A stretch of DNA of 64,000 nt from Dehalococcoidia bacterium (GTDB lineage: Bacteria; Chloroflexota; Dehalococcoidia; Lucifugimonadales; UBA2962): contig OZ252295.1 in assembly GCA_965250195.1 (NCBI GenBank), forward strand, positions 2,586,887 to 2,650,886, given 5' to 3'. Every line of letters begins with the position of its first letter. Position 1 is the first letter of the stretch. The position numbers and the translations under genes are program-made. The notes under the pieces are model-generated. The model made no database searches. It was not told the origin of the DNA and saw nothing but the letters and a program-made list of their open reading frames with translations. Below are positions 28,735 through 48,649 of the stretch, one piece after another.

Positions 28735-28801
28735 TGGGCAGGAGGTTTGTGCGGCCGGTTACATCGTCGCTAAAGCCGCCGCCCTGTCTCAACCGGCGGG
28801 G
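28735..28801 (+). repeat. array repeat R1 (degenerate left half)
   Basis: ..GGTTACATCGTCGCTAAAGCCGCCGCCCTGTCTCAACCGGCGGGG. Confidence 0.6.
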
Positions 28802-28823
28802 TAACTTCGGCTACGGTGTACTG

Positions 28824-29348
28824 TCAGCAGCTCTCATTCGCGGTGCCTCCATCCGGCATCAATGTGTTGCACAGAATCGCCCCTTCCATGTCCGCGCCCC
28901 TCAAGTTCGTAAAGGAGAGGTTGGCGTTGGTCAGGTTTACGTTGCGTAGCACGGCGTCCTTAAAGTTGACGTTGTTCAGGTTGGCGTCCGTCAGATCTGC
29001 TCCGGTGAGGTCCGCACCTGTCAGGTCCGCGAGATAGAGATCGACGCCCTTCATGTTCGCCGACCGCAGGTTCGCCCCGGTCAGATCTAAGCCGTCATTT
29101 CGGTTATTCCCCAAGAACTCCGCTCCCAGGTCCACACCTTCCAGGTCGGCACCTTCACACTGAGCATTTGGCTCGATGGTGCAGTTGCCAGCAGCAGATT
29201 TGCGCTCGGCCTCAGCGGTGGCGAACACGGCCATGCTTTCTGCAACGACGGTGGGCGTCAGGACGTCGGAGGGCGATCCCGCACCAGACGCGCAGGCCAC
29301 CACTAGCATCGTCGCCAGCAGGGCCATCGTGGGAAACAGCTGTCGCAT
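28824..29348 (-). CDS. pentapeptide-repeat lipoprotein, paralog 3
   Basis: Start at MRQLFPTMALLATMLVVAC (lipobox), CEGADLEG, pentapeptide run, C-terminal CNTLMPDGGTANESC. Confidence 0.7.
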   Translation of the reverse strand: MRQLFPTMALLATMLVVACASGAGSPSDVLTPTVVAESMAVFATAEAERKSAAGNCTIEPNAQCEGADLEGVDLGAEFLGNNRNDGLDLTGANLRSANMKGVDLYLADLTGADLTGADLTDANLNNVNFKDAVLRNVNLTNANLSFTNLRGADMEGAILCNTLMPDGGTANESC

Positions 29349-29486
29349 GGGCGAAGTGTAGCTGGGATTATCGGCGAACGAATCGTGCTGGACCGCCAAA
29401 GCCGCGATAGTCGCCGCCAAAACCGACACGGCTTTTATTTTGGGAGTACGTGGCCTCGACTAAGGGCCACCCTGGCTTGACTGCAA

Positions 29487-30149
29487 TCAAGGGCTACGTT
29501 CAACAATGCGCGCGCTGATCCGTAAGGCCTCTGACCCGGCCAAATCTCGTTCCCTCGTCGCAACCTCGATGAAATTTTCGGCCGCATCATCGTTTCCCGC
29601 GCTCGCATGGGCCACTGCCTCTACGAAGGCTGCGGCTGATAAAGCCAGGTGATCGGTTTGTGCTATGAAGCCGGCCTTTATGTCATCCCAACCCGAGGGA
29701 GCATCGATTGCTTCGAAACCTCTCCTGACTTCCACCAACCGCGCTCCGAGGTCTTCCAGTGCCGATAACCAGCCGGGATCGTCGAGCTTCAATGAAAGGC
29801 TGCGCGTCCTCAGTTCTTGATTGATGTTGGCCCATTCACTAATCAGCGGCTGAACGCTGTTGAGGTAAACCGCTGAATCTGTCGAGTCGTTGGAATCCCC
29901 ACTGAGTACATTTGCCAAAACGGCAATGACGATCACAGAGGCGACAACCACCAACACGATCCAGGTCGCCCTTAGAAACCGGGGCTGCGTAGCGATCTCA
30001 AGGTCCTCAGAATCGGTCGGGAGGGCAACGTTTGTCTTTGCCGGTCGACATACGCGGGATGGTATATCTAACGGCCCCAGCTCACCGATGACCCCGAGTT
30101 CCTGCCCCCGCTCAACCCGTGACGGCCTGCTCCTGGGCGGACGGGGCAC
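29487..30149 (-). CDS. hypothetical membrane-anchored protein (start uncertain)
   Basis: One TM helix (WIVLVVVASVIVIAVLANVL) followed by a helical domain. The track start overlaps the cupin gene by 38 nt. Confidence 0.4.
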   Translation of the reverse strand: MPRPPRSRPSRVERGQELGVIGELGPLDIPSRVCRPAKTNVALPTDSEDLEIATQPRFLRATWIVLVVVASVIVIAVLANVLSGDSNDSTDSAVYLNSVQPLISEWANINQELRTRSLSLKLDDPGWLSALEDLGARLVEVRRGFEAIDAPSGWDDIKAGFIAQTDHLALSAAAFVEAVAHASAGNDDAAENFIEVATRERDLAGSEALRISARIVERSP

Positions 30150-30513
30150 CCCAAATGATGGTCAGCTTCAACGGGTCGTCGCCTGTGTTACGGAACCCAT
30201 GATCCACACCCGGAGGAATAAGTATGGCGTCACCGGCAGCCACCGGAACGTCTTCGTCACCGACCCACATCACACCCTTTCCGCTGATGAAGTAGTAGAT
30301 CTCCTCCAGGGTATCGTCTCCTTCATGGATGTGGCTCCCTTCGCTGACGCCAGGGTCCAATTCCCACGCTTGGAACTTGATCGGAAGCCTGCTTAACTCT
30401 TCAAAAAACCCACGTGTCTTTATCTCGCCGTCGCCTTCGTGGATGCTGTAGGTCGTGACGTCTGTTGAGTCGTTTTCTTTCCAGTAGTAATGCATATCGA
30501 TACGGTGGCCCAC
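30112..30513 (-). CDS. cupin-domain protein
   Basis: GSHIHEGDDTLEEIYYFISG..N..PPGVDHGFRN two-motif cupin signature. Confidence 0.75.
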   Translation of the reverse strand: MGHRIDMHYYWKENDSTDVTTYSIHEGDGEIKTRGFFEELSRLPIKFQAWELDPGVSEGSHIHEGDDTLEEIYYFISGKGVMWVGDEDVPVAAGDAILIPPGVDHGFRNTGDDPLKLTIIWGAPSAQEQAVTG

Positions 30514-30611
30514 CTCCGATTCCTGACCTACGTGTCATCTTAGCCCCGTGAGAGAGACGTAGGGTCCGGCAGCCGGCGTGGTCTGCGTCGCACGGGTTAC
30601 TTCCCGGCATC

Positions 30612-30669
30612 GGCTCAATTTCGTGCGCGCGGGTACGCGCCTCAACAAGGGGCCGCCCTGGCTCAACCG
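30612..30669 (+). repeat. array repeat R2
   Basis: GGCTCAATTTCGTGCGCGCGGGTACGCGCCTCAACAAGGGGCCGCCCTGGCTCAACCG. Confidence 0.7.
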
Positions 30670-30689
30670 ACCCTCGCCCGCGCGTGACC

Positions 30690-30856
30690 GCGCACACGCC
30701 CGCGCATTGGACCCCCTATCGCTCCCTGAAGCAGTCCTGGGCAACCTATGTATTTGTCGGGGGTCCTTGACGGGGCTTTACTGGGGTAATCCTGGGACAA
30801 ATGTGTGGTGGAGACGGGGGAGGGTCGAACTACTCCTGCAACACGGGCAGGAGTCC
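30690..30856. repeat. non-coding element X, copy A (ends with a tRNA-3'-end-like sequence and an 8-bp hairpin)
   Basis: Most of it recurs at 44694-44813 and 44933-45018. The minus strand of 30806-30832 reads TAGTTCGACCCTCCCCCGTCTCCACCA. Hairpin ACTCCTGC-N7-GCAGGAGT at 30832-30854. Confidence 0.6.
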
Positions 30857-31023
30857 ATGTAGTGGCGAAGTCAGTTTAGCCGTCGGCAACCTCGGGAACG
30901 GCCTCCGCCTGGCAGGCACGGAGGAGCGCCCCAGTTTCATATGCGGAAGGGGTTCAGACAATCATGCCCGGAGATTCGGGCTCTGTTGCCGCCTGTTGAA
31001 GGAATCGCTTTTTAGAGCTGTGG

Positions 31024-31524
31024 CTACCAGAACTTCCACCAAGGCACGGACTCTTCGACAACCAGGGAGTCGCCTGCGTCGGCTTCCGCCGGTAACGCAA
31101 CGCCGGGCATTGAGCGGAACACCTTGGGGTCCATCTCCGCCAGCAATGTCAACTGTGCGGTGTCGTAATTCATGGAGACGGTTTGGTCCATGATGGCGTG
31201 TCTCATCGCGATCTTACCCGGCATACCATCTATGACGGCCTGAAAATCGCCCGCAATCTGCTTGGCCTTGCCCTTGTCCATCGCTAGCCACGAGTTCAGT
31301 CTGGCCTTTGACATCTCGGCCATTACCTTGTCACCCATATCGAATTCCTCGGTGATGATGACGGTCATCTTGGCTTTCCGATCCACCTCGGTGTCCGAGA
31401 GCATGTTGGTGAACAGTTCAGCCATCTTCGCCGTCTTTTCTTCTTCAGAGAGCTCAACGAGCTTTTTCACATCTATCGGGGCTGCATCGGTAGATTCGGT
31501 CATGACTGCCTCCTGATGTTTCAC
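31024..31524 (-). CDS. hypothetical protein
   Basis: 166-aa ORF with coding-like composition and an acidic helical N-terminal half. No motif recognised. Confidence 0.45.
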   Translation of the reverse strand: MKHQEAVMTESTDAAPIDVKKLVELSEEEKTAKMAELFTNMLSDTEVDRKAKMTVIITEEFDMGDKVMAEMSKARLNSWLAMDKGKAKQIAGDFQAVIDGMPGKIAMRHAIMDQTVSMNYDTAQLTLLAEMDPKVFRSMPGVALPAEADAGDSLVVEESVPWWKFW

Positions 31525-31688
31525 CTGGCGCCCTGAAACTGATCGGGACGAATTGGGTCGATGCTATCACGCACGTTGATGCCATCCCACAGTGACGGCA
31601 CTGATCCAAGAGGGAGTCCTTTTGGAGCGGCCGAATTCGAGGCTCCGGTAGGTTCAGCCGGTGGCCCACCCTTTTGGAGCCCCCAAAT

Positions 31689-31753
31689 AGCTCAGTTTCC
31701 CGCGCGGGGGCACTCAATCCCTAGGACAGGCCGCCCCGCCTCAATCGGCGGGG
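31689..31753 (+). repeat. array repeat R3
   Basis: AGCTCAGTTTCCCGCGCGGGGGCACTCAATCCCTAGGACAGGCCGCCCCGCCTCAATCGGCGGGG. Here the 3' hairpin is 8 bp (GCCCCGCC/GGCGGGGC). Confidence 0.8.
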
Positions 31754-31800
31754 CTACCGGCGCGCGCAGTCGCTGGATGGATCGTCAGACCGGGCTTGGG

Positions 31801-31917
31801 TCAGCGGCGGGGACGGCGAAGGTTTGACCTCCCTGGGAGGGGCTGAGACATGCGCTTGGACCCACCGCCAAACATCGCACTCAACACCCAACGGATGATG
31901 CTGAAGAACCTTTGCAT
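31801..31917 (-). CDS. possible 38-aa small protein
   Basis: Own translation: MQRFFSIIRWVLSAMFGGGSKRMSQPLPGRSNLRRPRR. AAGGAGG sits 7 nt upstream of the ATG. It is the only ORF in the 280-nt module between R3 and R4. Confidence 0.3.
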   Translation of the reverse strand: MQRFFSIIRWVLSAMFGGGSKRMSQPLPGRSNLRRPRR

Positions 31918-32039
31918 TTTTCCGTCCTCCTTAACGATCTCCGGTTCACAATCATATCGCTAGTCTAGAGATGACCTTGAGGGCACGAGGGGACGAGGTG
32001 CTCATCTTTCGGCCCACCTGCTAGTGCTGACCGGGGACG

Positions 32040-32102
32040 AGCCCAGTTTCCCGCGAGCAGCCACATAGCCTCTAAGAGGGGCCGCCCCACCTCAACCGAC
32101 GG
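32040..32102 (+). repeat. array repeat R4
   Basis: AGCCCAGTTTCCCGCGAGCAGCCACATAGCCTCTAAGAGGGGCCGCCCCACCTCAACCGACGG. Confidence 0.8.
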
Positions 32103-32115
32103 ATTAGTGCCTCTC

Positions 32116-32340
32116 CTAGCCGGATGGGCTTTGTGGCCGTAGGCGCGGTCGGACTCTCCTCGTAAATGCCAATCGAAATCCAAACACCTTGAGCCCAGCA
32201 AAATTCGAATCACACTCGTTGCAGGCGAAACTGTTAACCATCGCTCGAACGGTCTTTAGGACATGGTGAGATCCACATGCCGGACAAGACCGACGATGAG
32301 ATGCCGCGGCAACAACTAACGGGCAGATCAACCTGAGCAT
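32116..32340 (-). CDS. possible small zinc-ribbon protein
   Basis: Internal ATG of ORF 32116..32517: MLRLICPLVV..SCPACGSHHVLKTVRAMVNSFACNECDSNF (CxxC..N17..CxxC). The upstream part of the track ORF is just a translation of repeat R5. Confidence 0.35.
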   Translation of the reverse strand: MLRLICPLVVAAASHRRSCPACGSHHVLKTVRAMVNSFACNECDSNFAGLKVFGFRLAFTRRVRPRLRPQSPSG

Positions 32341-32400
32341 TTCGGCTTGATCGCATCGAGCGTTACTCACGAAGTTCTCACCGAGGAGATATCTGTAACC

Positions 32401-32443
32401 CCGCATAGCCCCCGGCAGCCGCCGCCCTGGCTCAACCGGCGGG
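32401..32443 (+). repeat. array repeat R5 (right part only)
   Basis: CCGCATAGCCCCCGGCAGCCGCCGCCCTGGCTCAACCGGCGGG. Confidence 0.65.
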
Positions 32444-32473
32444 AGGAACTGGTCCCTCTGTTTCTGCCAAGTC

Positions 32474-33583
32474 CTAGTTGTGGCAGCCTCGCGAGGGTAT
32501 GGAGATGACCTCTTCAACCACCCCGTTCCGCACGGCGATGAAGTTGTCGTACCGGTTGACAGTCAGGTCTTGCTGCGAGCTGCGCATCTGAAACTGGTCG
32601 CCGACCTTCAGAGGCATCTCGCCTTCGGAATTAAGCACACACAACTCGTCGCCCAGTGAGACGAACTTAACGCCGGGCACACCCTCCACCTCCGGGTCGT
32701 GTTTGCTGAGGCTGCTACCGATCGCTCGGTATCCGACATCACCGATGGCTATGCCGGGCCTGGGGGTGCTGACCACCGTACCCAGCACCTTTCCAGCATA
32801 CTGAAAGTGGCTCTCCATATAGGGCATCGAAGTGCTCATCAACGCGTACGACCCACCCTCGACGTCGGTGATTCCGGGCACCTGCGCCGCCATGTCATAC
32901 GAGTAGGTCTCTCCCGCGGAAACCATCTCCACTTCGATGCCCTCGGCCCGGATCGCCTCGGCCAGGTCCATGGTCTGACGGTAGTACTTGATGGCGTTGG
33001 AGATGCGCTCCTCTTCATCCTTTGGGGCGACGCGCACGGCCGAATGGCTCATGACCCCCATAAATTTTATCCCGGGCATTCCGCTCGCCACCCGGGCGAG
33101 GTGAACACCTGCTTCTACGCTACGGACGCCCGCCCTCCCCATGTTGGTGTCCACCTCAACTGATACACCTACAATCGATCCTTGCTGGCAGGCGATCCTG
33201 GAGATGTCACGCAGATTCTCCTCGCTGTCGATACCTATGGTGACGGTGGCTCGCTTGGCTAGAGCCGCGACGCGCGCGATCTTGTCGTCGGTCACGATCT
33301 CGTTGGCTATCAGCACGTCTGGGATGCCGCTCTCCACCATCACTTCCGCCTCTGCTACTTTGGCGGTACAGACGCCGCCCATCGAGCCTCCCGCCCGGAT
33401 CTGCATGTGAGCCAGCAGCGGGCTCTTTATGTTCTTGGTGTGCTCTCTGATCTTGACGTCGGTGTCTCTGTAAGTGTCGGCGATGTGCTGGAAATTGTGC
33501 TCCAGGGCGTCCATATCTAAGAGAAGGCACGGGGTATCCAACTCTCCGATCGGGGTGCCTACCGGTGGTCTGTATTGGTCCAT
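32474..33583 (-). CDS. PLP enzyme of the alanine-racemase-N fold (D-serine dehydratase/D-threonine aldolase-like, DSD1 family)
   Basis: Start at MDQYRPPVGTPIGELDTPCLLLD. PLP-lysine region REHTKNIKS. C-terminal beta-domain. Confidence 0.65.
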   Translation of the reverse strand: MDQYRPPVGTPIGELDTPCLLLDMDALEHNFQHIADTYRDTDVKIREHTKNIKSPLLAHMQIRAGGSMGGVCTAKVAEAEVMVESGIPDVLIANEIVTDDKIARVAALAKRATVTIGIDSEENLRDISRIACQQGSIVGVSVEVDTNMGRAGVRSVEAGVHLARVASGMPGIKFMGVMSHSAVRVAPKDEEERISNAIKYYRQTMDLAEAIRAEGIEVEMVSAGETYSYDMAAQVPGITDVEGGSYALMSTSMPYMESHFQYAGKVLGTVVSTPRPGIAIGDVGYRAIGSSLSKHDPEVEGVPGVKFVSLGDELCVLNSEGEMPLKVGDQFQMRSSQQDLTVNRYDNFIAVRNGVVEEVISIPSRGCHN

Positions 33584-33695
33584 CAGGTCTCCAGCGTTTC
33601 CTTGCGATACATGCCGCGCGCAACGACGTTGAGTACGCCCTCCGGTCATGATTCTGACCTTTCGCGGCAAACCACATTCTAGTCTGCGAGTTTCT

Positions 33696-33759
33696 GCGCA
33701 GTTTCCCGCGAGGAGGTACATAGCCCCTAAGAGGGGCCGCCAAGGCTCAACCGGCGGGG
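33696..33759 (+). repeat. array repeat R6
   Basis: GCGCAGTTTCCCGCGAGGAGGTACATAGCCCCTAAGAGGGGCCGCCAAGGCTCAACCGGCGGGG. Confidence 0.85.
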
Positions 33760-33777
33760 CCGCCCCGGCAACTGTAT

Positions 33778-34065: not shown

Positions 34066-34130
34066 TGATTCTTCCTTTATCAGCGGTGACCTGGCCGCCG
34101 TGGCTCACGGCGGGGGTGAAACGAACGCTG

Positions 34131-34853: not shown

Positions 34854-34896
34854 GCTGAGGACCTCCTGCCGTGTTCCAAGCGAATCATCGCACACC

Positions 34897-34942
34897 GGCA
34901 GTTGGCCGCCCATCAACCGCCGCCCTGGCTCAACCGGCGGGG
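34897..34942 (+). repeat. array repeat R7 (rearranged left half)
   Basis: GGCAGTTGGCCGCCCATCAACCGCCGCCCTGGCTCAACCGGCGGGG. Confidence 0.65.
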
Positions 34943-34987
34943 TATCGGACGAGTAGCTCTTAGCGGCACGCATCGTACGTCCAGGCC

Positions 34988-35914: not shown

Positions 35915-35927
35915 GGGTCGCATGTCT

Positions 35928-35993
35928 AAGCTCAGTTTCCCGGGCGGGGTCACATAGCTCTTAGAAGGGCCCGCCCTGGCTCAACCGGCGGGG
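35928..35993 (+). repeat. array repeat R8
   Basis: AGCTCAGTTTCCCGGGCGGGGTCACATAGCTCTTAGAAGGGCCCGCCCTGGCTCAACCGGCGGGGG. Confidence 0.85.
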
Positions 35994-36529: not shown

Positions 36530-36583
36530 AATGGTCCTGAGCAAGTACATCCAGGCCACGCATAATCAGGCGTTCAGGAAGCT

Positions 36584-36622
36584 TCACAGCCCCTAAGAGA
36601 GGCCGCCCTGGCTCAACCGGCG
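36584..36622 (+). repeat. array repeat R9 (right part)
   Basis: TCACAGCCCCTAAGAGAGGCCGCCCTGGCTCAACCGGCG. Confidence 0.7.
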
Positions 36623-36653
36623 AGCCAAGGGAGTACTACCCATTCACTAGACA

Positions 36654-36800
36654 ATCCTGAAATCCTTTTTCCCTATCCCTGGGCAGGAGGACCCGTATCC
36701 GCTGGTGTCCAAATCTTCGAGGGGGTGTGCCGTATCTGCTAAGGTGCCGTCACACTCAAATGCCAATAAATAGGCTTAGGTCGGCTACTCAACCGGCGGG
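36654..36800 (+). repeat. array repeat R9b, split copy
   Basis: The left arm ATCCTGAAATCCTTTTTCCCTATCCCTGGGCAGGAGG matches the left arm of R10. The right arm CTCAACCGGCGGG (36788-36800) supplies the GGGAGG Shine-Dalgarno sequence for the ATG at 36812. Confidence 0.5.
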
Positions 36801-36811
36801 AGGTATTACCT

Positions 36812-37102: not shown

Positions 37103-37124
37103 CTCGTAGCTGCGTCACGTGGCC

Positions 37125-37181
37125 TATCCTGAAATCCTAGTTTCCTGGGCAGGACCAGACCGCCTTCGCTCAACCGGGGGG
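37125..37181 (+). repeat. array repeat R10 (middle hairpin deleted)
   Basis: ATCCTGAAATCCTAGTTTCCTGGGCAGGACCAGACCGCCTTCGCTCAACCGGGGGGG. Confidence 0.55.
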
Positions 37182-37317
37182 GCCTGCACGTAGCTAGCAT
37201 GGCTTGCAAGAGGCGCTGCACGGCTGCCTGCGGGAGGCTATGGCTTATGTGCGGACGTGCCTGGCTCTCAGAGGCGGCTAGCCATGGGAAGACCCGCGGG
37301 GTTGTTATTCACCCGAG

Positions 37318-37566
37318 CTATGGCCTGATCTCTCTAGCCCACTGACCCGCCAATGCTCTCACCTCGTCGATGTTGGTCAGGGACTGCTTCTCGTGGCTTG
37401 GCGAGCTGACCTTCCACACCTTCATGAGGTCGTCCCACCAAACTTTGACGGAGGTCTGAACGTCGCCGTAGACCACGATCTGCTTGTGGGCCTGACCCGA
37501 TTTGTCCGGGATGTAGGTGATCTCGGGGTCCATAGTCCGCATTCTAGCAGCGTAGAAAACCGCCAC
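37318..37566 (-). CDS. hypothetical small protein
   Basis: 82-aa ORF with no motif. Confidence 0.4.
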   Translation of the reverse strand: MAVFYAARMRTMDPEITYIPDKSGQAHKQIVVYGDVQTSVKVWWDDLMKVWKVSSPSHEKQSLTNIDEVRALAGQWAREIRP

Positions 37567-37583
37567 GGCATTTAGTCTGGGGG

Positions 37584-37626
37584 TGCATAGCCCTTAAAGA
37601 GGGCCGCCCTGGCTCAACCGGCGGGG
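37584..37626 (+). repeat. array repeat R11 (right part)
   Basis: TGCATAGCCCTTAAAGAGGGCCGCCCTGGCTCAACCGGCGGGG. Confidence 0.75.
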
Positions 37627-37679
37627 GCAAGGTCGAATAACAATTCAGACTTTGAGTGCCTTACCAATGCCCATAACCT

Positions 37680-38846: not shown

Positions 38847-38882
38847 CCCTTAGCGTTTGACGAGTTTGACTGGGGTAGACAT

Positions 38883-38945
38883 CCCAGTTCCCCGCGAGCA
38901 GCTACACAGCCCTTAGAAGGGGCCGCCCAGGCTCAACCGGCTGGG
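38883..38945 (+). repeat. array repeat R12
   Basis: CCCAGTTCCCCGCGAGCAGCTACACAGCCCTTAGAAGGGGCCGCCCAGGCTCAACCGGCTGGG. Confidence 0.8.
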
Positions 38946-40062: not shown

Positions 40063-40110
40063 CGGTCTATCCTATGCGAGCCCTAACTGGAGTTCCAACG
40101 ACGCGGGGTA

Positions 40111-40173
40111 CCTCAGTTTCCCGCGAGCTGGCACATCGCCCCTAAGAGCGGCTGCCCTGGCTCAACCGGCGGG
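40111..40173 (+). repeat. array repeat R13
   Basis: CCTCAGTTTCCCGCGAGCTGGCACATCGCCCCTAAGAGCGGCTGCCCTGGCTCAACCGGCGGG. Confidence 0.85.
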
Positions 40174-40232
40174 CTGTACGGCCCTGCGCATTCATGTAGC
40201 TATCGACACATTGGCATATCATTCGCGGCACG

Positions 40233-43200
40233 ATGCCTAGTGAGCGTGTTCAACGCCAGATTGACCGGCTGCTCGACGAAGCCGAGCAGGCAATGGGTTT
40301 GCTCGAGTGGCAAATCGTCAGGCAACGTGTCGGGGCAGTCTTCGCTCTCGACCCCGAAAACGAGGACGCTACCACCTACATGGCCGCCGCCGAGCGTGCT
40401 GAGTCGGGTCACGCTGGCGCACCGGGGCCGCCGGAAGCAACCAAACCAGCTACCGAGTCTGAAACACCTACGTCGTTCTCCAACGGCCGCTACACCGTCA
40501 AGAAGTTCGTCGGCGAGGGCGGCAAAAAGAAAGTCTACCTCGCCCACGACGCTCAGCTCGACCGTGACATCGCCTTCGCGCTGATCAAGACCGAGGGCCT
40601 CGACGAAGCTGGCCGTGAGCGCATCACCCGCGAGGCCCAGTCCATGGGAAGGCTCGGGGCGCACCCACACATAGTCACGGTCTTCGAGTACGGGGATGAG
40701 GGCGGAGCGCCGTTCCTGGTCACCGAGCTGATGGGTGGGGGCGACGTCGAGGGGATTCTGGAAGACGCGCCAGATAACCGCGTTCCCCTGGAGCAGGCGC
40801 TAGAAATCGCCGGAGCCACCTGCCGGGGACTGGAGTTCGCCCACAGCCGGGGTATAGTCCACCGCGACCTCAAGCCCGGCAACGTGTGGCTGACGGCCGA
40901 CGGCGTTGCGAAGATCGGCGACTTCGGCCTGGCGGTCGCCATCGACCGGTCCCGGCTCACACAGCACGGAATGATGGTCGGGACAGTCTCGTACATGCCC
41001 CCAGAGCAGGCCCTCGGGGGCGAGGTCACACCGAAAGCCGACCTGTACTCGCTGGGCGCGATGCTTTACGAGATGGTCACCGGCCGACCGCCCTTTCTCG
41101 GTGACGACTCGGTCGCCATCATCGGCCAGCACATCAACACCGCGCCCGTTGCTCCGTCGTGGCACTGCTCGTGCCCGAAGCCACTAGAAGCGTTGATACT
41201 GCGGCTGCTATCGAAAGATCCGGCCGAGCGACCTGAGTCAGCCTCCGACGTGCTGGCCGCGCTGGTTGCGATCGACCCGACGGTTGTCGACACTACGGTC
41301 GAAGAGCAGGAGAACGTCCTCGACAGCCTGGCAGGCGGAGTGTTCGTTGGCCGCAGGGCCGAGATGGACCAGCTCAAAGCTGCATTGGAGGAGGCCCTCT
41401 CGGGCAAAGGTCGCCTGGTGACCCTTGTTGGTGAGCCGGGCATAGGTAAAACCCGCACGGCACAGGAACTGGTGACGTTTGCCAGCATGCGCGGCATGCA
41501 GGTGCTGTGGGGCCGCTGCTACGAGGAACAGGGCGTGCCGCCCTACTGGCCCTGGGTACAGGCGATCCGGGAATACGTGCACGAACGCAACGCCGACGAG
41601 CTTCGCAGTGAACTTGGCTCTGCCGCCGCCGTGATCGCGGAGATCGTGACCGATGTCAGGGATGCCCTGCCGGGCTTGCAAGCGCCGCCTGAAGTGAGCC
41701 GGGAGGAGGCCCGGTTCCGCCTTCTCGACTCTGTGGCCACTTTCCTAAAGAGCGCCTCTCGAAACAAACCGCTGATGCTTGTGCTGGACGACCTGCACTG
41801 GGCCGATGAAGCAACGCTCTCGCTACTCCAGTTCGTTGCCCGGGAGCTGGGCAACGCCAGGGTGCTGGTCATCGGCACCTACCGGGACATGGAGCTGAAT
41901 CGGCAGCACCCTCTCGCTGAGACGCTGGCTGAATTGACCAGAGTACGGCTGTTCGAGCGGGTCCTGCTGCGGGGCCTGAGCGCCGCCGACGTGGGCAGTT
42001 TCATGGAGCTGACCTCCGGTTTGGTGCCGCCCAAAGGCCTGGTGGAAGCCGTCCACAAGGACACCGAGGGTAATCCGCTGTTCGTCACCGAAGTGGTGCG
42101 GCTGCTAGTGCAGGACGGTGAGCTCACCCCGGAGAAAGTGCGGGAGCGTGGAACGGGATCCTGGGAGATTCGCATACCTGAAGGGATACGGGAGGTGATC
42201 GGCCGTCGGCTGAACCGGCTCTCCGAGCGCTGCAACGATGTGCTGACGACCGCCGCCGTGGTGGGACGGGCCTTCGAGATGCGGGTCATGTCCTCGCTGA
42301 TGAGCGACAACATGACCGAGGGCATGCTGCTCGATGTGCTGGAGGAGGCGTTGAACGCTCGGGTGATCGAGGAGCTTTCGGGTTCGGTCGGGCGATACCA
42401 GTTCACACATGCGCTCATACAGGAGACGCTGACCGACGACCTCAGCCTCACCCGTCGCGTGCGCCTGCACGCCCGCATCGCCGAGACGCTGGAAGCGCTT
42501 TACGGCGACCGCACGAAAGACCACGCCGTCGAGCTCGCACATCACTTCGCCCAGGCCGAGGCAATGCTGGGCAGCGACAAGCTGGTCGAGTATTCGCTTT
42601 TTGCGGGCCAGGCGGCTCTGGTGGCGTACGCGTTCGAAGATGCCGAGGCCATCTACCGCCGCGCTCTGAACGCGCTAGAAGGTTCGGAGATGGACGAGTC
42701 GAAGGCGGACCTCACGACCGGCCTGGGCATGGCTCTCGGTGGCAGCCTGCGCTGGGCCGAGGGCTGGCCGATCTTGGAGGAGGCGTTCAACTACTACGAG
42801 GCCGCCGGTCTGAAAGAAAAGGCCCTTGCCATTGTCATATACCCGGACGTTCACGCTCCCTCAAGGGGGCTGTCGGGTGCGAGCTTGGCAATGGAGCGGG
42901 CAGTCGAGCTGGCCGAGCCCGACTCCGCTAAGCGTGCGTACGTTCTGATGCTCTTCGGAGTGTTCGTCTCAGTTGACACGGGGGACGACGACCGTTCAGT
43001 CGAAATTATGGGCCGTGCATTCTCCATCGCTGAGGATCTGGGAGACATGCGGCTCCAGATGGAGGTGTTGGCTGGATGGTCCGAGGTCGACTTCTGGCGA
43101 GCCAAGGCATCGGAGAGCCTGCCGAAGGCGATCCGAGCGGCCAATTTAGCTGTCGAACTCGATGATCCCAACACCGAGTCATTTGCCCGGTTTTACGTGA

Positions 43201-44051
43201 GCATTTGCCGGTGGATCGGCGAGTTGGATATGGAGGCAGCCGTCGCAGAGTCACAGCTTGCCATCAAAGCTGCAGAAAGGGCCATGGGCCGCTCCAGTTT
43301 GCCTGCAACCCTTTATTTACACGGTCTTATCCAAGTGTTCCGAGGTCGTTTCGACGAAGCGGCCGACTTCCTGCAACAAGCCCATGAACTCGCGCCCGAA
43401 GACGAGATTATTCAGGCGTCCATGGCGAATTTTCACAACCAAGCCGGACGACTGGAGTTGGCCGACACATTCTTGGACCGGATGTGGGCAGGTGCCAGCG
43501 GACCTGGCCGAAAGCTCAGGTTGGGCCTTTACGTGTTTGTCGCGAACTACCGGCTAACCGTAGAAGCGGACGAACAAATCATGGCCCGAGTTGAGGAGAT
43601 CACGGAAGAGGCGTCGAACACTCGGATACCGCTCATGCCTCCTGTGATGATCGCCCGGATAAAAGGGCTCATCGCGGAATTGAAAAGCGATGCGGAAGGC
43701 GCGCGGTCTGCGTATGACCGGATCAACGAGGAGATCGGTGACGAGTTATCCGTGGGTGTTGCTGGTCCTCTTTCTAACGTACTCGCCAACCTGGCTGTCG
43801 CTTTCGGCGACCTTGATCTCGCAAATGAGCACTTCACACAGACGTTGCCCATTCTAGAAAGCGGTGGCTTCAGAACTGTCATGGCCCGGGTGCTCTACGA
43901 GTACGGGGACATGCTCCTGACCAGGGACGGCGACGGCGACCGGAAGAAGGCCAACCAGCTACTGGAGAAGGGCCTCCTCCTCTCTCGCGACATCGGCATG
44001 CCCTGGCTCACCGAACGCATCCTGGCGCGCCGGGAGATCCTCAAGGCCTAG
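40233..44051 (+). CDS. Ser/Thr protein kinase fused to an AAA/STAND-type NTPase and TPR-like repeats (PknK-like architecture)
   Basis: Kinase motifs GEGGKKKV..AFALIK, HRDLKPGNV, DFG, SYMPPE. Walker A GEPGIGKT and Walker B LVLDDLHWAD. Long helical-repeat C-terminus. Length 1272 aa. Confidence 0.85.
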   Translation: MPSERVQRQIDRLLDEAEQAMGLLEWQIVRQRVGAVFALDPENEDATTYMAAAERAESGHAGAPGPPEATKPATESETPTSFSNGRYTVKKFVGEGGKKKVYLAHDAQLDRDIAFALIKTEGLDEAGRERITREAQSMGRLGAHPHIVTVFEYGDEGGAPFLVTELMGGGDVEGILEDAPDNRVPLEQALEIAGATCRGLEFAHSRGIVHRDLKPGNVWLTADGVAKIGDFGLAVAIDRSRLTQHGMMVGTVSYMPPEQALGGEVTPKADLYSLGAMLYEMVTGRPPFLGDDSVAIIGQHINTAPVAPSWHCSCPKPLEALILRLLSKDPAERPESASDVLAALVAIDPTVVDTTVEEQENVLDSLAGGVFVGRRAEMDQLKAALEEALSGKGRLVTLVGEPGIGKTRTAQELVTFASMRGMQVLWGRCYEEQGVPPYWPWVQAIREYVHERNADELRSELGSAAAVIAEIVTDVRDALPGLQAPPEVSREEARFRLLDSVATFLKSASRNKPLMLVLDDLHWADEATLSLLQFVARELGNARVLVIGTYRDMELNRQHPLAETLAELTRVRLFERVLLRGLSAADVGSFMELTSGLVPPKGLVEAVHKDTEGNPLFVTEVVRLLVQDGELTPEKVRERGTGSWEIRIPEGIREVIGRRLNRLSERCNDVLTTAAVVGRAFEMRVMSSLMSDNMTEGMLLDVLEEALNARVIEELSGSVGRYQFTHALIQETLTDDLSLTRRVRLHARIAETLEALYGDRTKDHAVELAHHFAQAEAMLGSDKLVEYSLFAGQAALVAYAFEDAEAIYRRALNALEGSEMDESKADLTTGLGMALGGSLRWAEGWPILEEAFNYYEAAGLKEKALAIVIYPDVHAPSRGLSGASLAMERAVELAEPDSAKRAYVLMLFGVFVSVDTGDDDRSVEIMGRAFSIAEDLGDMRLQMEVLAGWSEVDFWRAKASESLPKAIRAANLAVELDDPNTESFARFYVSICRWIGELDMEAAVAESQLAIKAAERAMGRSSLPATLYLHGLIQVFRGRFDEAADFLQQAHELAPEDEIIQASMANFHNQAGRLELADTFLDRMWAGASGPGRKLRLGLYVFVANYRLTVEADEQIMARVEEITEEASNTRIPLMPPVMIARIKGLIAELKSDAEGARSAYDRINEEIGDELSVGVAGPLSNVLANLAVAFGDLDLANEHFTQTLPILESGGFRTVMARVLYEYGDMLLTRDGDGDRKKANQLLEKGLLLSRDIGMPWLTERILARREILKA

Positions 44052-44080
44052 CGCGGCGGATCGTTCGGTCGCGGATTCTG

Positions 44081-44142
44081 GGCAGTTTCTCGAGCGGCGG
44101 TACACGCCTCTAACAGGGGCCGCCCTGGCTCAACCGGCGGGG
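44081..44142 (+). repeat. array repeat R14
   Basis: GGCAGTTTCTCGAGCGGCGGTACACGCCTCTAACAGGGGCCGCCCTGGCTCAACCGGCGGGG. Confidence 0.85.
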
Positions 44143-44200
44143 TCTACGGCACTGCCCATCCATGTAGCCATCGATACATTGGCATATCATTTGCGGCACG

Positions 44201-44347
44201 ATGCCGAGTGATTTCATTCAGAGTCGTATTGATCGACTTCTGGCTCAGGCGGCAGAGGCAGCCGACGAACTCGACTGGGACGGGGTGGTCTCGGCTAAGC
44301 AAAGGGTCGTCACCGTCCAGCCCAAGGTCAAGCCCGCCGAAGAGTAA
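44201..44347 (+). CDS. 48-aa ORF homologous to the N-terminus of the kinase-STAND protein
   Basis: Own translation: MPSDFIQSRIDRLLAQAAEAADELDWDGVVSAKQRVVTVQPKVKPAEE, versus kinase MPSERVQRQIDRLLDEAEQAMGLLEWQIV. The 60-nt leader is also duplicated. Its stop overlaps the next ATG (TAATG). Confidence 0.45.
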   Translation: MPSDFIQSRIDRLLAQAAEAADELDWDGVVSAKQRVVTVQPKVKPAEE

Positions 44348-44673
44348 TGGCGAGGTCACCAACCGCCATGGCAAAGTTCGCTACATCAGCCCTCGTGCTG
44401 GCAGCGTTCGTCCTGGCCGCGTGTGGCGGCAATTCGGCCGTCGCCAGTCCCAGCGCGACCGAAGAGAGCTACCAGAGCTACTACCAGCAGTCAAAAGGCG
44501 ACGTCTGCGACCCCAGCTACCCCGGCGTCTTCATCGCTCCGCCGCCGCCGGACCTGGTGTGCGAGGAGGTGCCCTACCGCAACTTCGCCGTCATCGGCTC
44601 AGACCCGCACGCCTTCGACGCCGACGGCAACGGAATTGGTTGCGAGGGGTGGCTGCACAGTGCCGGCAACTGA
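44347..44673 (+). CDS. excalibur-domain lipoprotein
   Basis: Lipobox VLAAC. C-terminal DADGNGIGCE (DxDxDGxxCE calcium-binding excalibur motif). Confidence 0.75.
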   Translation: MARSPTAMAKFATSALVLAAFVLAACGGNSAVASPSATEESYQSYYQQSKGDVCDPSYPGVFIAPPPPDLVCEEVPYRNFAVIGSDPHAFDADGNGIGCEGWLHSAGN

Positions 44674-44693
44674 CGGCGAGCGAGCGCCTGATC

Positions 44694-44813
44694 GCGCACA
44701 CGGGCGCGCCTTGGACCCCCTATCGCTCTCTGTAGCGGTCCTGGGCTATTCCTGTAACTAAGGGGTGTTGCTTGACGGGGTTTGACGGGGTAATCCTGGG
44801 AGTTTCGTGTGGG
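44694..44813. repeat. non-coding element X, copy B part 1 (interrupted)
   Basis: GCGCACACGGGCGCGCCTTGGACCCCCTATCGCTCTCTGTAGCGGTCCTGGGC...CTTGACGGGGTTTGACGGGGTAATCCTGGGAG aligns with 30690-30797. Confidence 0.6.
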
Positions 44814-44858
44814 CTGGCACATCGTTGTTAGAGAGGCCTCAGGCACGTCAACCGGCGC
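44814..44858 (+). repeat. array repeat R15 (degenerate, lying inside element X copy B)
   Basis: CTGGCACATCGTTGTTAGAGAGGCCTCAGGCACGTCAACCGGCGC, compared with the R13 segment CTGGCACATCGCCCCTAAGAGCGGCTGCCCTGGCTCAACCGGCGG. Confidence 0.45.
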
Positions 44859-44932
44859 TCTGTTTCGACCGAAAGTCCCGGGCCATGGCGGCGAGGGCGC
44901 TTAAGAGCCGCTAGTCACGTATTTAGCACCCC

Positions 44933-45018
44933 CTTGACAGGGCTTTGCTGGGGTCATGCTGGGAGTTGTTGGAGACGGGGGGGTCGAACTACACGTGCAA
45001 CACGGGTGTAGTCCTTTT
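44933..45018. repeat. non-coding element X, copy B part 2 (hairpin plus T-run)
   Basis: CTTGACAGGGCTTTGCTGGGGTCATGCTGGGAG..GGAGACGGGGGGGTCGAACTACAC-N11-GTGTAGTCCTTTT aligns with 30765-30856. Confidence 0.6.
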
Positions 45019-45121
45019 CACTGTCCCCCGAAGTTTTTCCGAATGGTCAGTTGGCCCAGTCTGGTCAGGGGATCAGTATTCGAGTGGCCAGATCGGTCAT
45101 GGCGAACCCCGACTTGCGGAC

Positions 45122-45781
45122 CTACTTCTTAAAGACGGCGACCGTGGCCACGTAGTCCTGGTCAAGGGAGCCCGCCGTCTCCGATGTGGGGTACGGGTCC
45201 AGCGCGGAAAGGGCCACGAAAAAGCCTCCGCCCGGGGTGCCGATGGTGGGATCGACCTGTCCGCCCTCCAGTGAAAGGGTCAGTTCACCCACGTTCTGCC
45301 CGAACCACGAGATGTGTATCTTGATTTTCGCTTCGCCCGTAGTGGCGCAGGTCGCGTCCTGCGGGCAGCGGGAGTCCTCCAACACCTCCAGGAAAGTGAC
45401 CGTCAAGCCGTCGCCCTGGATCGGGCTGGCCATGCGCTCGCCCAGGTCCAGTCGCACCAGCGTCCCCAGCGGAGCCACGGTGACTTCGGTATCGTCGTCG
45501 GCATCCATCACCTCGTTCGAGAAGACGAACTCGGACGCGGGTCTGCCGCTGGTGCTAGAGCCGCCCACCGGCTCCGGGGTGGGCTCGGCCTCCTCTGCCT
45601 GAGCGACCGGTTCCACCCCGACCAGGGTCGATCGGTCGCCTGCCACACCGGTGTCGCTCCGGTTGGTGGCCAGATCCCCGGAGTCGCCGGACGCGGTGGA
45701 GTCTGTGGCGGCCGGCGAGCCGGAGCAAGCCATTGCGATAAAGATCACGACGGCGGCCGAGACGCGCAGAAGTCGAATCAA
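45122..45781 (-). CDS. hypothetical lipoprotein
   Basis: Signal/lipobox VIFIAMAC. No other motif. Lies 25 nt downstream of the Kelch gene. Confidence 0.5.
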   Translation of the reverse strand: MIRLLRVSAAVVIFIAMACSGSPAATDSTASGDSGDLATNRSDTGVAGDRSTLVGVEPVAQAEEAEPTPEPVGGSSTSGRPASEFVFSNEVMDADDDTEVTVAPLGTLVRLDLGERMASPIQGDGLTVTFLEVLEDSRCPQDATCATTGEAKIKIHISWFGQNVGELTLSLEGGQVDPTIGTPGGGFFVALSALDPYPTSETAGSLDQDYVATVAVFKK

Positions 45782-45806
45782 AGGGTCCCCCTGGCGCTCG
45801 ACGGCC

Positions 45807-46991
45807 TTAGGGCACGTACAGTTCGGTCTCGGAATACGCGCCGTCCGGGCCGGTGCCGCCGGTAATCAGCGCCCGGCCGTCGGCCAGTATCGTGACGATG
45901 TGTCGGTATCTCTCATCCAGCAAGTCGGGAGCCACCGTCCAGGTATCCAGCTCCGGATCGTAGATCTCCACCGAGCCGCCCACAGCCAGCCCACCGCTGA
46001 CCATCACCTGTCCGTCGGCTAACAGCACCGCCGAGTGTTCGGACCGTTTATTCGCCAGTTCCGAGACCGGAGAGAACGCGGAGGTCGCCGGGTCCCATAT
46101 CTCTCCCGAATTCTTTGCCTTGCCCTGACCACCGACCACTAGGACCCGGCCGTCAGACAACAGGGTGACCGTGTGCAGTATCCGGCCGACCGACATCTCT
46201 CCGGCGTCCGTCCACGTATCGCTCGCCGGATCGTAGAGTTCTGCTGACTCAAGGTACGGGCCATCCATTTTGCCCCCCCCGACCACCAGCACCCTGCCGT
46301 CCGTGAGCGTGACGGCGACGTGCCGCCTGCGCTTCTCGCTCATCGACGCGGCTTCGGCCCACACACCGGTCGCGGGGTCGTAAATCTCAGTCGAGGCCAG
46401 CGTGCTGAACAGCTCGATATCAAGGCCGCCGGTTACGAGGACGCGACCGTCGTCGAGCACCGCCCAGGCCTCGGTCTCCCGCGCCACCGACAACGAACCG
46501 GTCAGGGTCCAGGTATCGGTTGTCGGGTCCCACAATTCCGCCGTGAGGAAGGGATCCAGGGTCACGCCCACCCCTCCTGCCACCAGTACTGATCCGTTGG
46601 GGAGGGCGGCCACCACCATCTGCCTGCGGCCCTCGACAAGAGAGCCCGTCCTTGTCCACTCGCCGGTTGCCGGATCATAGATCTCGGTCGTGTCGTAAAC
46701 CGTCGCCCGGATGGCCCGGCCGCCCTTGCCCCGACCGCCGATGGCCATCACCCGGCCGTCGGGTAGCGTCACCAAGTTGTGGTAAAAGCGATCATCGTGC
46801 ATCTTACCGGTGCTGGTGAACTCGCCGATCGACCGTGTGAGCTTCGCCGGCTCGTCGGCGCTGTCTGCGTCGCCGCCGGCATCGACGGATGTTGAAGTGG
46901 CAGCAGGTGCGCTGCTGCAGGCGACCAGGGCCATCGCCGCAACCAGGGCCAGCACAAATAGGGCCGCGATAAAGAGAGTCCGACGGTGCAT
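45807..46991 (-). CDS. Kelch-repeat beta-propeller lipoprotein
   Basis: Lipobox MALVAC. Repeated DGRVL(V)(V/T)GG and E(I/L)YDP units. Confidence 0.75.
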   Translation of the reverse strand: MHRRTLFIAALFVLALVAAMALVACSSAPAATSTSVDAGGDADSADEPAKLTRSIGEFTSTGKMHDDRFYHNLVTLPDGRVMAIGGRGKGGRAIRATVYDTTEIYDPATGEWTRTGSLVEGRRQMVVAALPNGSVLVAGGVGVTLDPFLTAELWDPTTDTWTLTGSLSVARETEAWAVLDDGRVLVTGGLDIELFSTLASTEIYDPATGVWAEAASMSEKRRRHVAVTLTDGRVLVVGGGKMDGPYLESAELYDPASDTWTDAGEMSVGRILHTVTLLSDGRVLVVGGQGKAKNSGEIWDPATSAFSPVSELANKRSEHSAVLLADGQVMVSGGLAVGGSVEIYDPELDTWTVAPDLLDERYRHIVTILADGRALITGGTGPDGAYSETELYVP

Positions 46992-47255
46992 CGAATCACC
47001 TCCCGCCGAACCCTATTCAGGTCCGGCGAAGATTCACCCGCGTTCCGTGGTTACAGGTACAAGGCCGACTTTACAGCATGCAGTCAACCCGTATACCGCT
47101 GTGACCTAATCATCTACACCGGAGAAGGTGGCAACGAGGGCGGACGACAGGTCGCCGACCAGCAGTTCACCAAGGGCAACAAGGCGTTTTGGTGCGCCCC
47201 GGCGGCCTCCGGCGCCGGTGGCATCGGTGATACGGCGTATCGGGGGGATACCGAT

Positions 47256-48488
47256 CTATATGGCACCCCGGCCCCTGAGGGCGGCCGCCTCGCCGGCGTC
47301 TATGCCCAGGACCTGGCCAAGTACCTCTTCTGTGTGTTCTGAGAGCAGGGGCGCCGCCGTGACCCGGACCACGTTGCCCTCAACCTTTATCGGGCAGCCG
47401 ATTCCCGTGTAGTCTCCCCGCACCGGGTCGCTTACATCGACCATCATCTCGCGCGCTCGCAGGTGCGGGTCGGTGAGCAGCTCGGCGGTGTCGCGTACCG
47501 CGCTGCACGGGATGCCGATGTCGCTCAGTTCGTCCATCACTTCGTATTTCGTTTTCGTTTTCGTCCAGCGCGACACGATTTCGGCGACCTCTTCCGGTCG
47601 CTCGGCCCTGGCCTGGTCGGTGGCGTAACGCTCGTCGCCGATCAGCTCGGGCCTGCCGGTGACGGCGAGCAGGGCGTCCCAGGCTTCTCCGCCAATGTTT
47701 ATGCTCACGTAGTCGTTTGGGCCGCCGCCCGAGCAGAGGTAGACGAAGTCGGGGATTCCCCAGATCCGGTTGCCGGTTCGCCGCACCGGCTCGCCCGCGG
47801 GCAGCGTCTCCACGTACCTGACCCGAATGAGGTTTAGCACCGCGTCCTGCATCGAGACCTCGACTTTCGGCGCGATACCGGTCTTATCGCGCTGCCGCAG
47901 GGCGGCGAGGATGCCGATGGCGCAGTGCAGCCCAGACCCCGAGTCTGCGATGCCGGACGAGGTAAAGACCGGTGGGCGGTCGGGGAAGCCGTTGGTGCTC
48001 ATCGCCCCCCCGGCCGCCTGTGCGACGTTCTCGTAGCTCTTGAGGTGCGCGTCAGGCCCGTAGGTTCCGAAGCCCTTTATGGACGCGACGACGAGGCGCG
48101 GGAACTCTTCTGACAACGTCTCGGGACCCAGCGCGAAGCTCTCCATGCGGCCGGGGGCGTAGTTCTCCACGACAACGTCGGACTCTGCGGCGAGACGTTT
48201 GAACAGGGACACGCCTTCCACAGACTTGAGGTTGACCGTGATGCCCCGCTTGTTGGCGTTGAAGACGAGGTAGTAGAAGCTGTCGACGTCCGGGCGGTCA
48301 GCCATCTCCCAGCGGGTTCTATCTCCCCGGCCCGGCTCCTCTATTTTGATGACGTCGGCCCCGAGCCATGCCAGTAGCTGGGTGCAGGACGGCCCTGCCT
48401 GCACCTGCGTAAGGTCGAGTATGCGTACGCCCTCTAACGGCCCGGTCCCCGAAGGCCTGGTCATTGGGGACTGTAGCTTCCTTTGCAT
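47256..48488 (-). CDS. CaiB/BaiF family III CoA-transferase (formyl-CoA transferase-like)
   Basis: N-terminal PLEGVRILDLTQVQAGPSCTQLLAWLGADVIKIEEP. Length 410 aa. Confidence 0.8.
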   Translation of the reverse strand: MQRKLQSPMTRPSGTGPLEGVRILDLTQVQAGPSCTQLLAWLGADVIKIEEPGRGDRTRWEMADRPDVDSFYYLVFNANKRGITVNLKSVEGVSLFKRLAAESDVVVENYAPGRMESFALGPETLSEEFPRLVVASIKGFGTYGPDAHLKSYENVAQAAGGAMSTNGFPDRPPVFTSSGIADSGSGLHCAIGILAALRQRDKTGIAPKVEVSMQDAVLNLIRVRYVETLPAGEPVRRTGNRIWGIPDFVYLCSGGGPNDYVSINIGGEAWDALLAVTGRPELIGDERYATDQARAERPEEVAEIVSRWTKTKTKYEVMDELSDIGIPCSAVRDTAELLTDPHLRAREMMVDVSDPVRGDYTGIGCPIKVEGNVVRVTAAPLLSEHTEEVLGQVLGIDAGEAAALRGRGAI

Positions 48489-48584
48489 GGCCCACCTCCG
48501 ATTGACGGGTTCGGCACGACTTGGGGGAAGTTTATGCGATTCCGCACGGCGAGCGGATTACGAAGGCTGGGGGATACCTAGATC

Positions 48585-48649
48585 GGCTCAGTTTCCCGCG
48601 CGGGGCCACACAGCCCCTAGAACGGGCCGCCCTGGCTCAACCGGCGGGG
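48585..48649 (+). repeat. array repeat R16 (last copy, next to the tRNA)
   Basis: GGCTCAGTTTCCCGCGCGGGGCCACACAGCCCCTAGAACGGGCCGCCCTGGCTCAACCGGCGGGG. Confidence 0.85.

Follow-up and report, generated by a model that had tools for sequence, protein, structure and literature searches.

The 64,000-nucleotide stretch of chromosome analysed here, hereafter the window, probably comes from a marine Chloroflexi of the SAR202 type, to judge by its enzyme content and the names of database matches, and carries between positions 28738 and 48649 an array of about 16 modules, each of 0-3 genes, set between co-oriented + strand copies of a single 64-nt repeat. At its right-hand edge the array abuts a tRNA-Thr(CGT) gene (48813-48888, minus strand), which points its 3' end toward the array at a distance of 163 nt from the last repeat copy and which the first-pass annotation of this DNA, made from the sequence without database searches, had missed. 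The genes of the array lie on both strands, about half of them antisense to the repeat, and their Pfam-supported cargo is mixed: pentapeptide, cupin, DSD1-like pyridoxal-phosphate (PLP) enzyme, alpha/beta hydrolases, EamA, SIS, kinase-AAA-TPR and Kelch, all as the first-pass annotation had them, and CoA-transferase. G+C in the array is below that of its surroundings (0.59-0.60 in the left two thirds vs 0.63-0.65 in the flanks), G+C at third codon positions is lower in many array genes than in flank genes, and + strand GC skew is positive over most of the window. No recombinase, transposase or repetitive extragenic palindrome (REP)-associated tyrosine transposase (RAYT) was found among the 52 substantial open reading frames (ORFs) of the window, 40 of which were searched against Pfam and the other 12 inspected by translation only, in agreement with the earlier remark that the window holds no recombinase. 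We argue, with a probability that we put at about one half, that this region is a tRNA-linked cassette array of hypervariable content and that the recombinase for which its repeats serve as crossover sites is encoded elsewhere.

The repeat family is sharply delimited. A profile search (nhmmer, profile built from seven full copies, significance cut-off E<0.01) of both strands of the 64 kb returned 15 matches, all on the + strand and all inside 28738-48649, and outside 28.7-48.7 kb it returned no match better than E=4 on either strand; a short variant at 37125-37182 (E=0.14) and a split copy at about 36654/36788 stand beside these 15. By chance, 15 of 15 copies would share one orientation with P=6e-5, and all 15 would fall within 31% of the window with P=2e-8; furthermore, the 23-nt core matches at 13 places in the window at no more than three mismatches, against none in 100 shuffles. 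The profile starts agree to within a few bases with the positions first given for the copies, and the accompanying claims that every copy has the same orientation, is intergenic and has no counterpart elsewhere in the 64 kb hold as well. The unit reads GCTCAGTTTCCCGCG-AGnnGn-CACATAGCCCCTAAGAGGGGCCGCCCTGGCTCAACCGGCGGGG, and its best-kept part is a nearly invariant 21-24-nt core at the 3' end, CCGCCCTGGCTCAACCGGCGG. The 5' 40 nt are variable and are absent altogether from several copies, many copies consisting of the 3' 24 nt only. A conserved ACAYAG block lies directly 5' of a short hairpin, and the core itself contains an inverted repeat of only 5 bp. Every copy is intergenic, in most cases 15-100 nt from a gene end, and start-to-start spacing runs from 340 to 3968 nt with a mean of 1.3 kb.

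Individual copies differ in how much of the unit they keep (ranges begin at the projected start of the 64-nt unit unless otherwise stated). Full copies lie at 31690-31753 (E=1e-16), 32041-32104 (E=2e-14), 33696-33759 (nearest to the consensus; E=2e-19), 35930-35993 (E=7e-19), 38882-38945 (E=9e-18, with a TTGAC..TTGAC..GGGGTA extension before it), 40111-40174 (whose downstream 110 nt are duplicated after the next copy), 44079-44142 (E=2e-16) and 48586-48649, the last, tRNA-proximal copy, which is near consensus (E=6e-19); the copy at 30612-30675 (E=2e-9) is full length with its final ~8 nt diverged. At the distal end of the array, the copy at 28738-28801 (E=1e-6) has a diverged 5' part and an intact core, CCGCCCTGTCTCAACCGGCGGGG. 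The 3' half only is kept at 32381-32444 (E=1e-5), the 3' two thirds at 36562-36625 (E=3e-10) and at 37563-37626 (exact core; E=6e-10), and the exact 24-nt core alone at 34919-34942, where the projected unit would start at 34879. The copy at 44797-44860 is degenerate (E=0.009). In the short variant at 37125-37182, AGTTTCC leads to the core CCGCCTTCGCTCAACCGGGGGGG, and the possible split copy (36646-36806; weak, E about 1) comprises a variant 5' part with CCTGAAATCCT and CCTGGGCAGGA, some 100 nt, and a right half, CTCAACCGGCGGGAGG. Some copies have an upstream extension, TTGACGGGGYTTTRCTGGGGTAATCC, that contains a pair of direct TTGAC(N)GGGG-like half-sites (38850-38881, 44770-44796 and 44935-44975 in the window; 1125-1162 of L127, one of the metagenome contigs described below), and a noncoding 89-nt block at 44879-44967 is 91% identical to L127.

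An exact scan of metagenome contigs for the 21-mer core gave 24 loci, of which 20 are genuine family members, all on marine contigs; the other four (L129, L130, L134 and L135) were set aside as chance matches in which the 21-mer appears to encode ..ALAQPAA.. in signal-peptide-like coding sequence. Nearly every match sits in a cluster, and on all contigs with at least two copies these are co-oriented and 0.1-4.5 kb apart, giving about eight independent arrays once overlapping contigs are merged. Their cargo differs completely from that of the window (GIY-YIG, HSDR_N, Mrr, HEPN-Swt1/M50, trypsin-like protease, SDRs, ADH, amidase and a phosphotriesterase (PTE) paralogue) and is typical of flexible islands. 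Searches beyond these arrays came back empty: no copies occur in about 60 kb from three other SAR202-like contigs (L141-L144) fetched for another purpose, a viral contig scan for the core found none, and the profile recognised no family member among the matches listed (L001-L116) for the loose pattern CCGCCNNNNCTCAACCGGCGG in the genome collection. The nearest relatives found through SET-domain homologues are at most 65% identical, not syntenic and without repeats. A second co-oriented repeat family, which we call type B, occurs on many of the metagenome contigs (L118, L119, L121, L124-L126, L128, L136, L138-L140 and L145) and is absent from the window; its members, about 85 nt long (..CTACATACCT..hairpin..GGGTGTACCCCCACCCCTGGCTACCTT), have the CCCTGGCT motif in common with the main repeat and sometimes run straight into the main core.

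All five array ends captured abut a tRNA gene: Thr in the window, Pro on L120, Ala on L125 and L139 (the same locus in two strains) and Gly on L132. Their geometry is common to all, with the tRNA on the strand opposite the repeat's + and its 3' end toward the array. Beyond the tRNA and before the first repeat, the Pro, Ala and Gly loci have in turn a terminator-like hairpin and a conserved stretch with the exact 23-mer TTGGGAGCAA-TG-TTGGGAGCAAC, which contains an internal direct repeat (L120 2017-2039, L125 3126-3148, L132 7431-7453, L139 626-648); the window lacks this tRNA-proximal junction motif, a candidate for an attI-like primary site or an end of the island. A tRNA-derived attachment site was considered and rejected, as no 20-mer of the tRNA-Thr gene recurs in the window at three or fewer mismatches, and alignments of the repeat to five tRNAs score in the range of shuffles (p=0.08-0.68). 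One small array, on the 486-kb contig L122, has no tRNA. Here two co-oriented copies bracket a single 406-aa ORF with no Pfam match (3502-4892; the same locus appears as L137 and L146), between an MFS transporter and housekeeping genes, and the downstream copy is the left part only (..GGGCTGCCCT), followed by unrelated sequence. The locus looks like a one-module insertion away from any tRNA; a search for the empty site through MFS homologues found the filled site (L146) and non-syntenic relatives only.

Comparison of the metagenome arrays with one another places changes of content at the repeat. A GIY-YIG gene with its downstream repeat forms a 0.7-kb module that is 98% identical between L118/L121 and L125 and has different neighbours on both sides; the identity runs through the right-hand repeat and stops within the core at the step from CCCTGGCT to (C/T)AAC, beyond which L125 continues with a diverged right half, TAACTGGCGAGG, and then the tRNA-Ala junction. 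L139 has the same tRNA-Ala locus without the GIY-YIG module, and a search for further contexts of this module found only the known one. Similarly, L120 and L123 agree at 99-100% as far as the core of one copy and at about 70% beyond it, and L136 equals L140 plus one extra ADH module. An ORF-less linker module beginning ACGTAGCTAGC (37186-37234, + strand; E=9e-6) is common to five metagenome arrays and comes after a core copy behind five different upstream modules, the window's included. In the de-duplicated set of copies there are 16 pairs with one 40-nt flank in common (at least 70% identity) and the other not (below 55%), and a single pair with both flanks in common. Together, the core-only copies and the linker module indicate that the 24-nt core alone is enough to mark a junction, and the core-only copies further indicate that the 5' 40 nt belong to the upstream module. 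The first-pass annotation had read the region as a cassette-like array of unrelated modules and had proposed looking for gain or loss at repeat boundaries; run on the metagenome contigs, that check found presence, absence and context switches coinciding with the repeat, and these switches, the other cargo of the related arrays and the lower G+C of the window's array all favour the cassette reading.

The combination of mixed gene orientation and fixed site orientation is what would be expected if the site, rather than transcription, dictates orientation. Indeed, the fixed orientation of the sites beside the free orientation of the genes, the clustering and the tRNA anchor fit conservative site-specific recombination at the core, as do the different cargo of related arrays, the one-sided sharing of flanks and the hybrid terminal copy. 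In the array that we envisage downstream of tRNA-Thr, with one co-oriented, lineage-specific repeat per junction, modules would be joined at the conserved 21-24-bp core, in which CCGCCCTGGCT is followed by CAACCGGCGG, and the variable ~40 nt on the 5' side would move with the upstream module. A recombinase encoded elsewhere in the genome and acting in trans would carry out conservative site-specific recombination at this core, so that circular or donor-borne modules could be inserted or excised at existing sites. The logic would be that of an integron or of a staphylococcal cassette chromosome (SCC) composite island, with a site that is not attC and with cargo orientation unconstrained. Three elements of this scheme go beyond the comparisons above and are what we infer from them: a dedicated recombinase rather than RecA as the agent of the switches, a crossover point inside the core, and a free intermediate through which modules pass. 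More tentatively, as a possibility to which we give somewhat less than even odds, the arrays may represent a distinct, non-integron cassette system of marine Chloroflexi (SAR202-like), in which a distant recombinase of the tyrosine, serine or HUH type uses the CCGCCCTGGCT-CAACCGGCGG core; such an enzyme would insert, excise and shuffle promoter-bearing mini-cassettes, producing co-oriented arrays downstream of several tRNA genes.

Several observations weigh against recombination in trans at the core. A recombinase gene was found neither in the window nor in the related arrays, of which about 60 kb were likewise free of any recombinase or RAYT. The core is unlike a textbook dimeric recombinase site because its inverted repeat is only 5 bp, and the breakpoint between L120 and L123 starts some 8 nt left of the core. 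Most breakpoints can be placed only within the conserved repeat, and homologous recombination would give the same picture. The mosaic evidence comes from short-read metagenome contigs, in which assembly chimeras at repeats are possible, and the join of the GIY-YIG module to tRNA-Ala rests on a single contig. Furthermore, the turnover comparisons concern metagenome contigs rather than the window's own modules, and the distribution of copies was established over 64 kb of a 2.65-Mb source contig.

The missing recombinase and the conservation of sequence rather than structure would both be explained if the element were a REP-like or miniature inverted-repeat transposable element-like intergenic repeat, spread for example by a HUH/RAYT-type enzyme on one strand or simply retained in a flexible island, with module gain and loss as a by-product of RecA recombination between direct repeats of 24-64 bp or of homology-anchored uptake. 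Like REPs and bacterial interspersed mosaic elements (BIMEs) as commonly described, the repeat is short, G+C-rich, intergenic and species-specific, with a conserved block on the 5' side of a small hairpin, and ACAYAG with its short hairpin loosely resembles the GTAG-plus-hairpin of REPs; co-orientation over 20 kb would also be expected of a replication-strand-biased element, in keeping with the mostly positive GC skew, and the breakpoints, resolving mostly only to the inside of the repeat, are no obstacle. REPs, however, are scattered over the whole genome, and they often form inverted pairs within a single intergenic region. Here there is one copy per junction, no inverted pair occurs, copies are co-oriented in the window and at every multi-copy locus, and the family is confined to arrays in all sequence examined, with 0 copies in the 44 kb of window flanks and their approximately 45 intergenic regions, none in the other SAR202-like contigs and nearly all metagenome matches clustered. 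The arrays, moreover, repeatedly end at tRNA genes, and core-only copies mark junctions even though 24 nt is at the lower limit for efficient RecA recombination. Such a repeat would thus account for sequence conservation and the lack of a recombinase but less well for clustering and tRNA anchoring, and we consider it the main rival, if a rather unlikely one; the first-pass annotation had rightly named another site-specific cassette system and an orientation-biased REP as the alternatives, of which the evidence favours the former. Repeated integration of small elements at tRNA-linked att sites, the repeat being the scar and the integrases lost or carried by other elements, after the manner of tycheposon islands, Dehalococcoides ssrA islands or SCC composite islands, overlaps with our preferred reading and differs from it mainly in whether modules once carried their own integrase. 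It would suit the fixed geometry in which arrays lie beside four different tRNA genes, at their 3' ends, the conserved tRNA-proximal junction, the island-typical cargo and the L125-L139 comparison, in which the newest module is tRNA-proximal and the right half of the proximal copy has diverged. Against this, the repeat is not a partial tRNA and the window contains no tRNA fragments, four tRNA loci and at least one locus with no tRNA (L122) share a single repeat family, the modules measure 0.1-4 kb with no integrase remnants, and the viral contigs scanned carry no copy of the core, and for these reasons we regard an origin as integration scars as distinctly improbable.

A true integron cassette array, of the kind termed CALIN, that is, a cluster of attC sites without an integrase (Cury et al. 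2016, PMC4889954), whose attC sites have diverged to an unusual degree and whose IntI is encoded elsewhere, has its appeal, as integrons are on record in Chloroflexi (PMC4889954) and the layout is that of a CALIN: small unrelated modules, ORF-less mini-modules, one co-oriented repeat per junction at about 1-kb spacing (15-17 + strand copies 340-3968 nt apart, where a CALIN has at least two co-oriented sites less than 4 kb apart), no integrase nearby and content varying between relatives. The repeats are also lineage-specific, as are the VCRs (Vibrio cholerae repeats) of sedentary integrons, and GCTCAAC fits RYYYAAC. The site itself is nonetheless no canonical attC. The suggestion that GGTTGAGCC represents an integron core finds no support, as the unit has GTT...AAC, the wrong order for attC, on both strands, and a regular-expression search of both strands of the 64 kb (boxes 45-150 nt apart, at most one mismatch) finds 0 complementary RYYYAAC...GTTRRRY pairs, so the earlier observation that the inverted symmetry of attC is missing was sound. 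Nor can the flanks supply a pair: in eight of nine full or near-full copies there is no GRAAAC upstream or GTTRRR downstream within 150 nt, the exception having GTTGAG 128-134 nt downstream. The site thus differs from attC in having neither R''/L''-L'/R' symmetry nor AAC...GTT boxes, and what it conserves is a 21-24-nt sequence core. Folding points the same way. The consensus does contain two palindromes, GCCCC-N5-GGGGC and CCGCC-N11-GGCGG, with 75% and 93% of cells paired, and there are a few anecdotal compensatory variants, such as CTAT/ATAG for CCCC/GGGG in the middle hairpin; however, when four copies were folded as single-stranded DNA, neither strand was stabler than dinucleotide shuffles (z from +0.07 to -1.16), RNAalifold yields five weak pairs only for 22 full copies drawn from the window and metagenomes, and five candidate helices have no more paired cells and compensatory changes than column shuffles. 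The element had been called a structured repeat: both hairpins are indeed in the consensus, whereas structure as such is unproven. A canonical attC is ruled out by box order, absent box pairs, shuffle-level folds and lack of covariation. In the window and in L118/L121/L136, roughly every second gene is antisense to the sites, unlike the mostly co-oriented ORFs of cassettes, no intI with attI beside a first cassette was found within the window, and the arrays are anchored beside tRNA genes instead; an integron, even a divergent one, is therefore extremely unlikely in our estimation. The repeat family is conserved in sequence, not in structure, which points to either a protein-recognised DNA site or a recently spread element. 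A cis-regulatory or RNA element (terminator, promoter, insulator, RNA-processing or protein-binding site), lying in an island that varies for some unrelated cause, would explain the fixed position of the repeat 13-60 nt from gene ends, and TAGAAT does occur on the opposite strand 21-23 nt from the repeat 5' end at three window and two metagenome copies. Yet repeat orientation is independent of gene orientation, and the copies show no terminator or sigma-70 consensus, no Rfam match and no conserved structure: intrinsic terminators and sigma-70 promoters were rejected, with 0 of 10 terminator-like sites and 0 of 1 promoter-like site on a repeat and counts below shuffle means, and in Rfam only tRNA-Thr passes the gathering threshold in the window, with nothing on any repeat at E<=5. 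Regulation would moreover leave the switch points at the repeat unexplained, and we judge it very improbable.

On our preferred reading, of a tRNA-linked cassette array served by a recombinase in trans, the region would share the logic of SCC composite islands as well as of integron cassette arrays. SCC islands at rlmH of staphylococci also stack tandem modules at one anchor gene between short co-oriented direct repeats, many of the modules having no recombinase and being moved in trans, and leave cargo orientation free. In contrast to them, the array in the window has a tRNA 3' flank in place of rlmH as its anchor, its modules are smaller by a factor of 10-50, nothing resembling a Ccr serine recombinase was seen, and its repeat is longer, with an optional 40-nt 5' part. 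Within the same phylum, the ssrA islands of Dehalococcoides, which McMurdie and colleagues are said to have described in 2011, likewise have tandem modules downstream of a tRNA-like gene and co-oriented direct repeats. Their repeats reportedly copy the ssrA 3' end, and each island spans many kb and has its own serine recombinase, unlike the window, where the repeat is not a tRNA fragment and no recombinase was found. In the tycheposon islands of Prochlorococcus, the elements bring integrases with them and the repeats reproduce part of the island's own tRNA (bioRxiv 10.1101/2020.12.28.424599). These islands resemble ours in their marine host, in a flexible island beside a tRNA, in defence and nutrient cargo and in an apparent displacement of older insertions away from the tRNA as newer ones arrive; they differ from it in that the repeat here is unrelated to tRNAs and is the same at four tRNA loci, with an integrase not found. 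Neither the integrons of Chloroflexi (PMC4889954) nor the tRNA-linked islands of Prochlorococcus match the array in the window, and full-text literature searches on SAR202 or Chloroflexi with integrons, attC, genomic islands and tRNA turned up no account of such arrays.

Several further features of the window may merit attention. The ~60-nt leader and first ~20 codons of the kinase-AAA-TPR gene (40175-40292) are repeated with 78% identity at 44143-44260, directly after the next repeat, where the second copy, with its ATG at 44201, appears to be a short remnant; a 175-aa ORF at 44208-44735 has atypical codon-position G+C and no Pfam match and is probably spurious. The 8-mer CATTCTAG lies 21-23 nt left of the repeat 5' end wherever a minus-strand gene starts there (28717, 33675 and 37540 in the window; about 4870 on L118 and about 2995 on L125), and three of its four + strand occurrences in the window are at such repeat-adjacent places. 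On the minus strand it reads TAGAAT, a -10-like hexamer, and it is not the start codon of the ORFs at 28717 and 33675 because it is out of frame with them. Just left of the array, at 27774-28664 (minus strand), two same-frame ORFs, neither with a Pfam match, are parted by a TGA in ..LIPI-TGA-PVC..; this resembles the UxxC selenocysteine site of a GrdB/PrdB-like reductase subunit, so that the two are probably a single selenoprotein gene. Kelch-repeat and pentapeptide-lipoprotein genes farther left (20971-26143) share repeat families with the array genes at 28824-29429 and 45807-46991, and by the profile this left-hand stretch, conceivably an older and decayed portion of the array, has no repeat copies. 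At 3499-7793 lie four tandem phosphotriesterase-family paralogues of about 350 aa with 63-75% DNA identity, and a fifth lies at 54375-55604; the paralogue carried as cargo by a metagenome array (L118 2080-3159) has 76% DNA identity.

To our knowledge, among systems that store up single-gene cassettes in chromosomal arrays, only integrons are well understood. Integron detection depends on the attC fold and on IntI, and an array of the same architecture with a different, sequence-defined site would be invisible to IntegronFinder-type tools. Should the repeat prove to be of the REP type instead, the arrays would still illustrate that the turnover of modules in an island beside a tRNA gene can be structured by short direct repeats. 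If the cassette reading is true, the core would provide a simple DNA tag with which to fish the mobile gene pool from metagenomes and would point to a recombinase with possible use as a tool. For the host group, which is among the most abundant bacteria of the deep ocean, it would offer a concrete mechanism for a large flexible gene pool and for paralogue expansions, and would represent an independent evolutionary solution to the problem that integrons solve.

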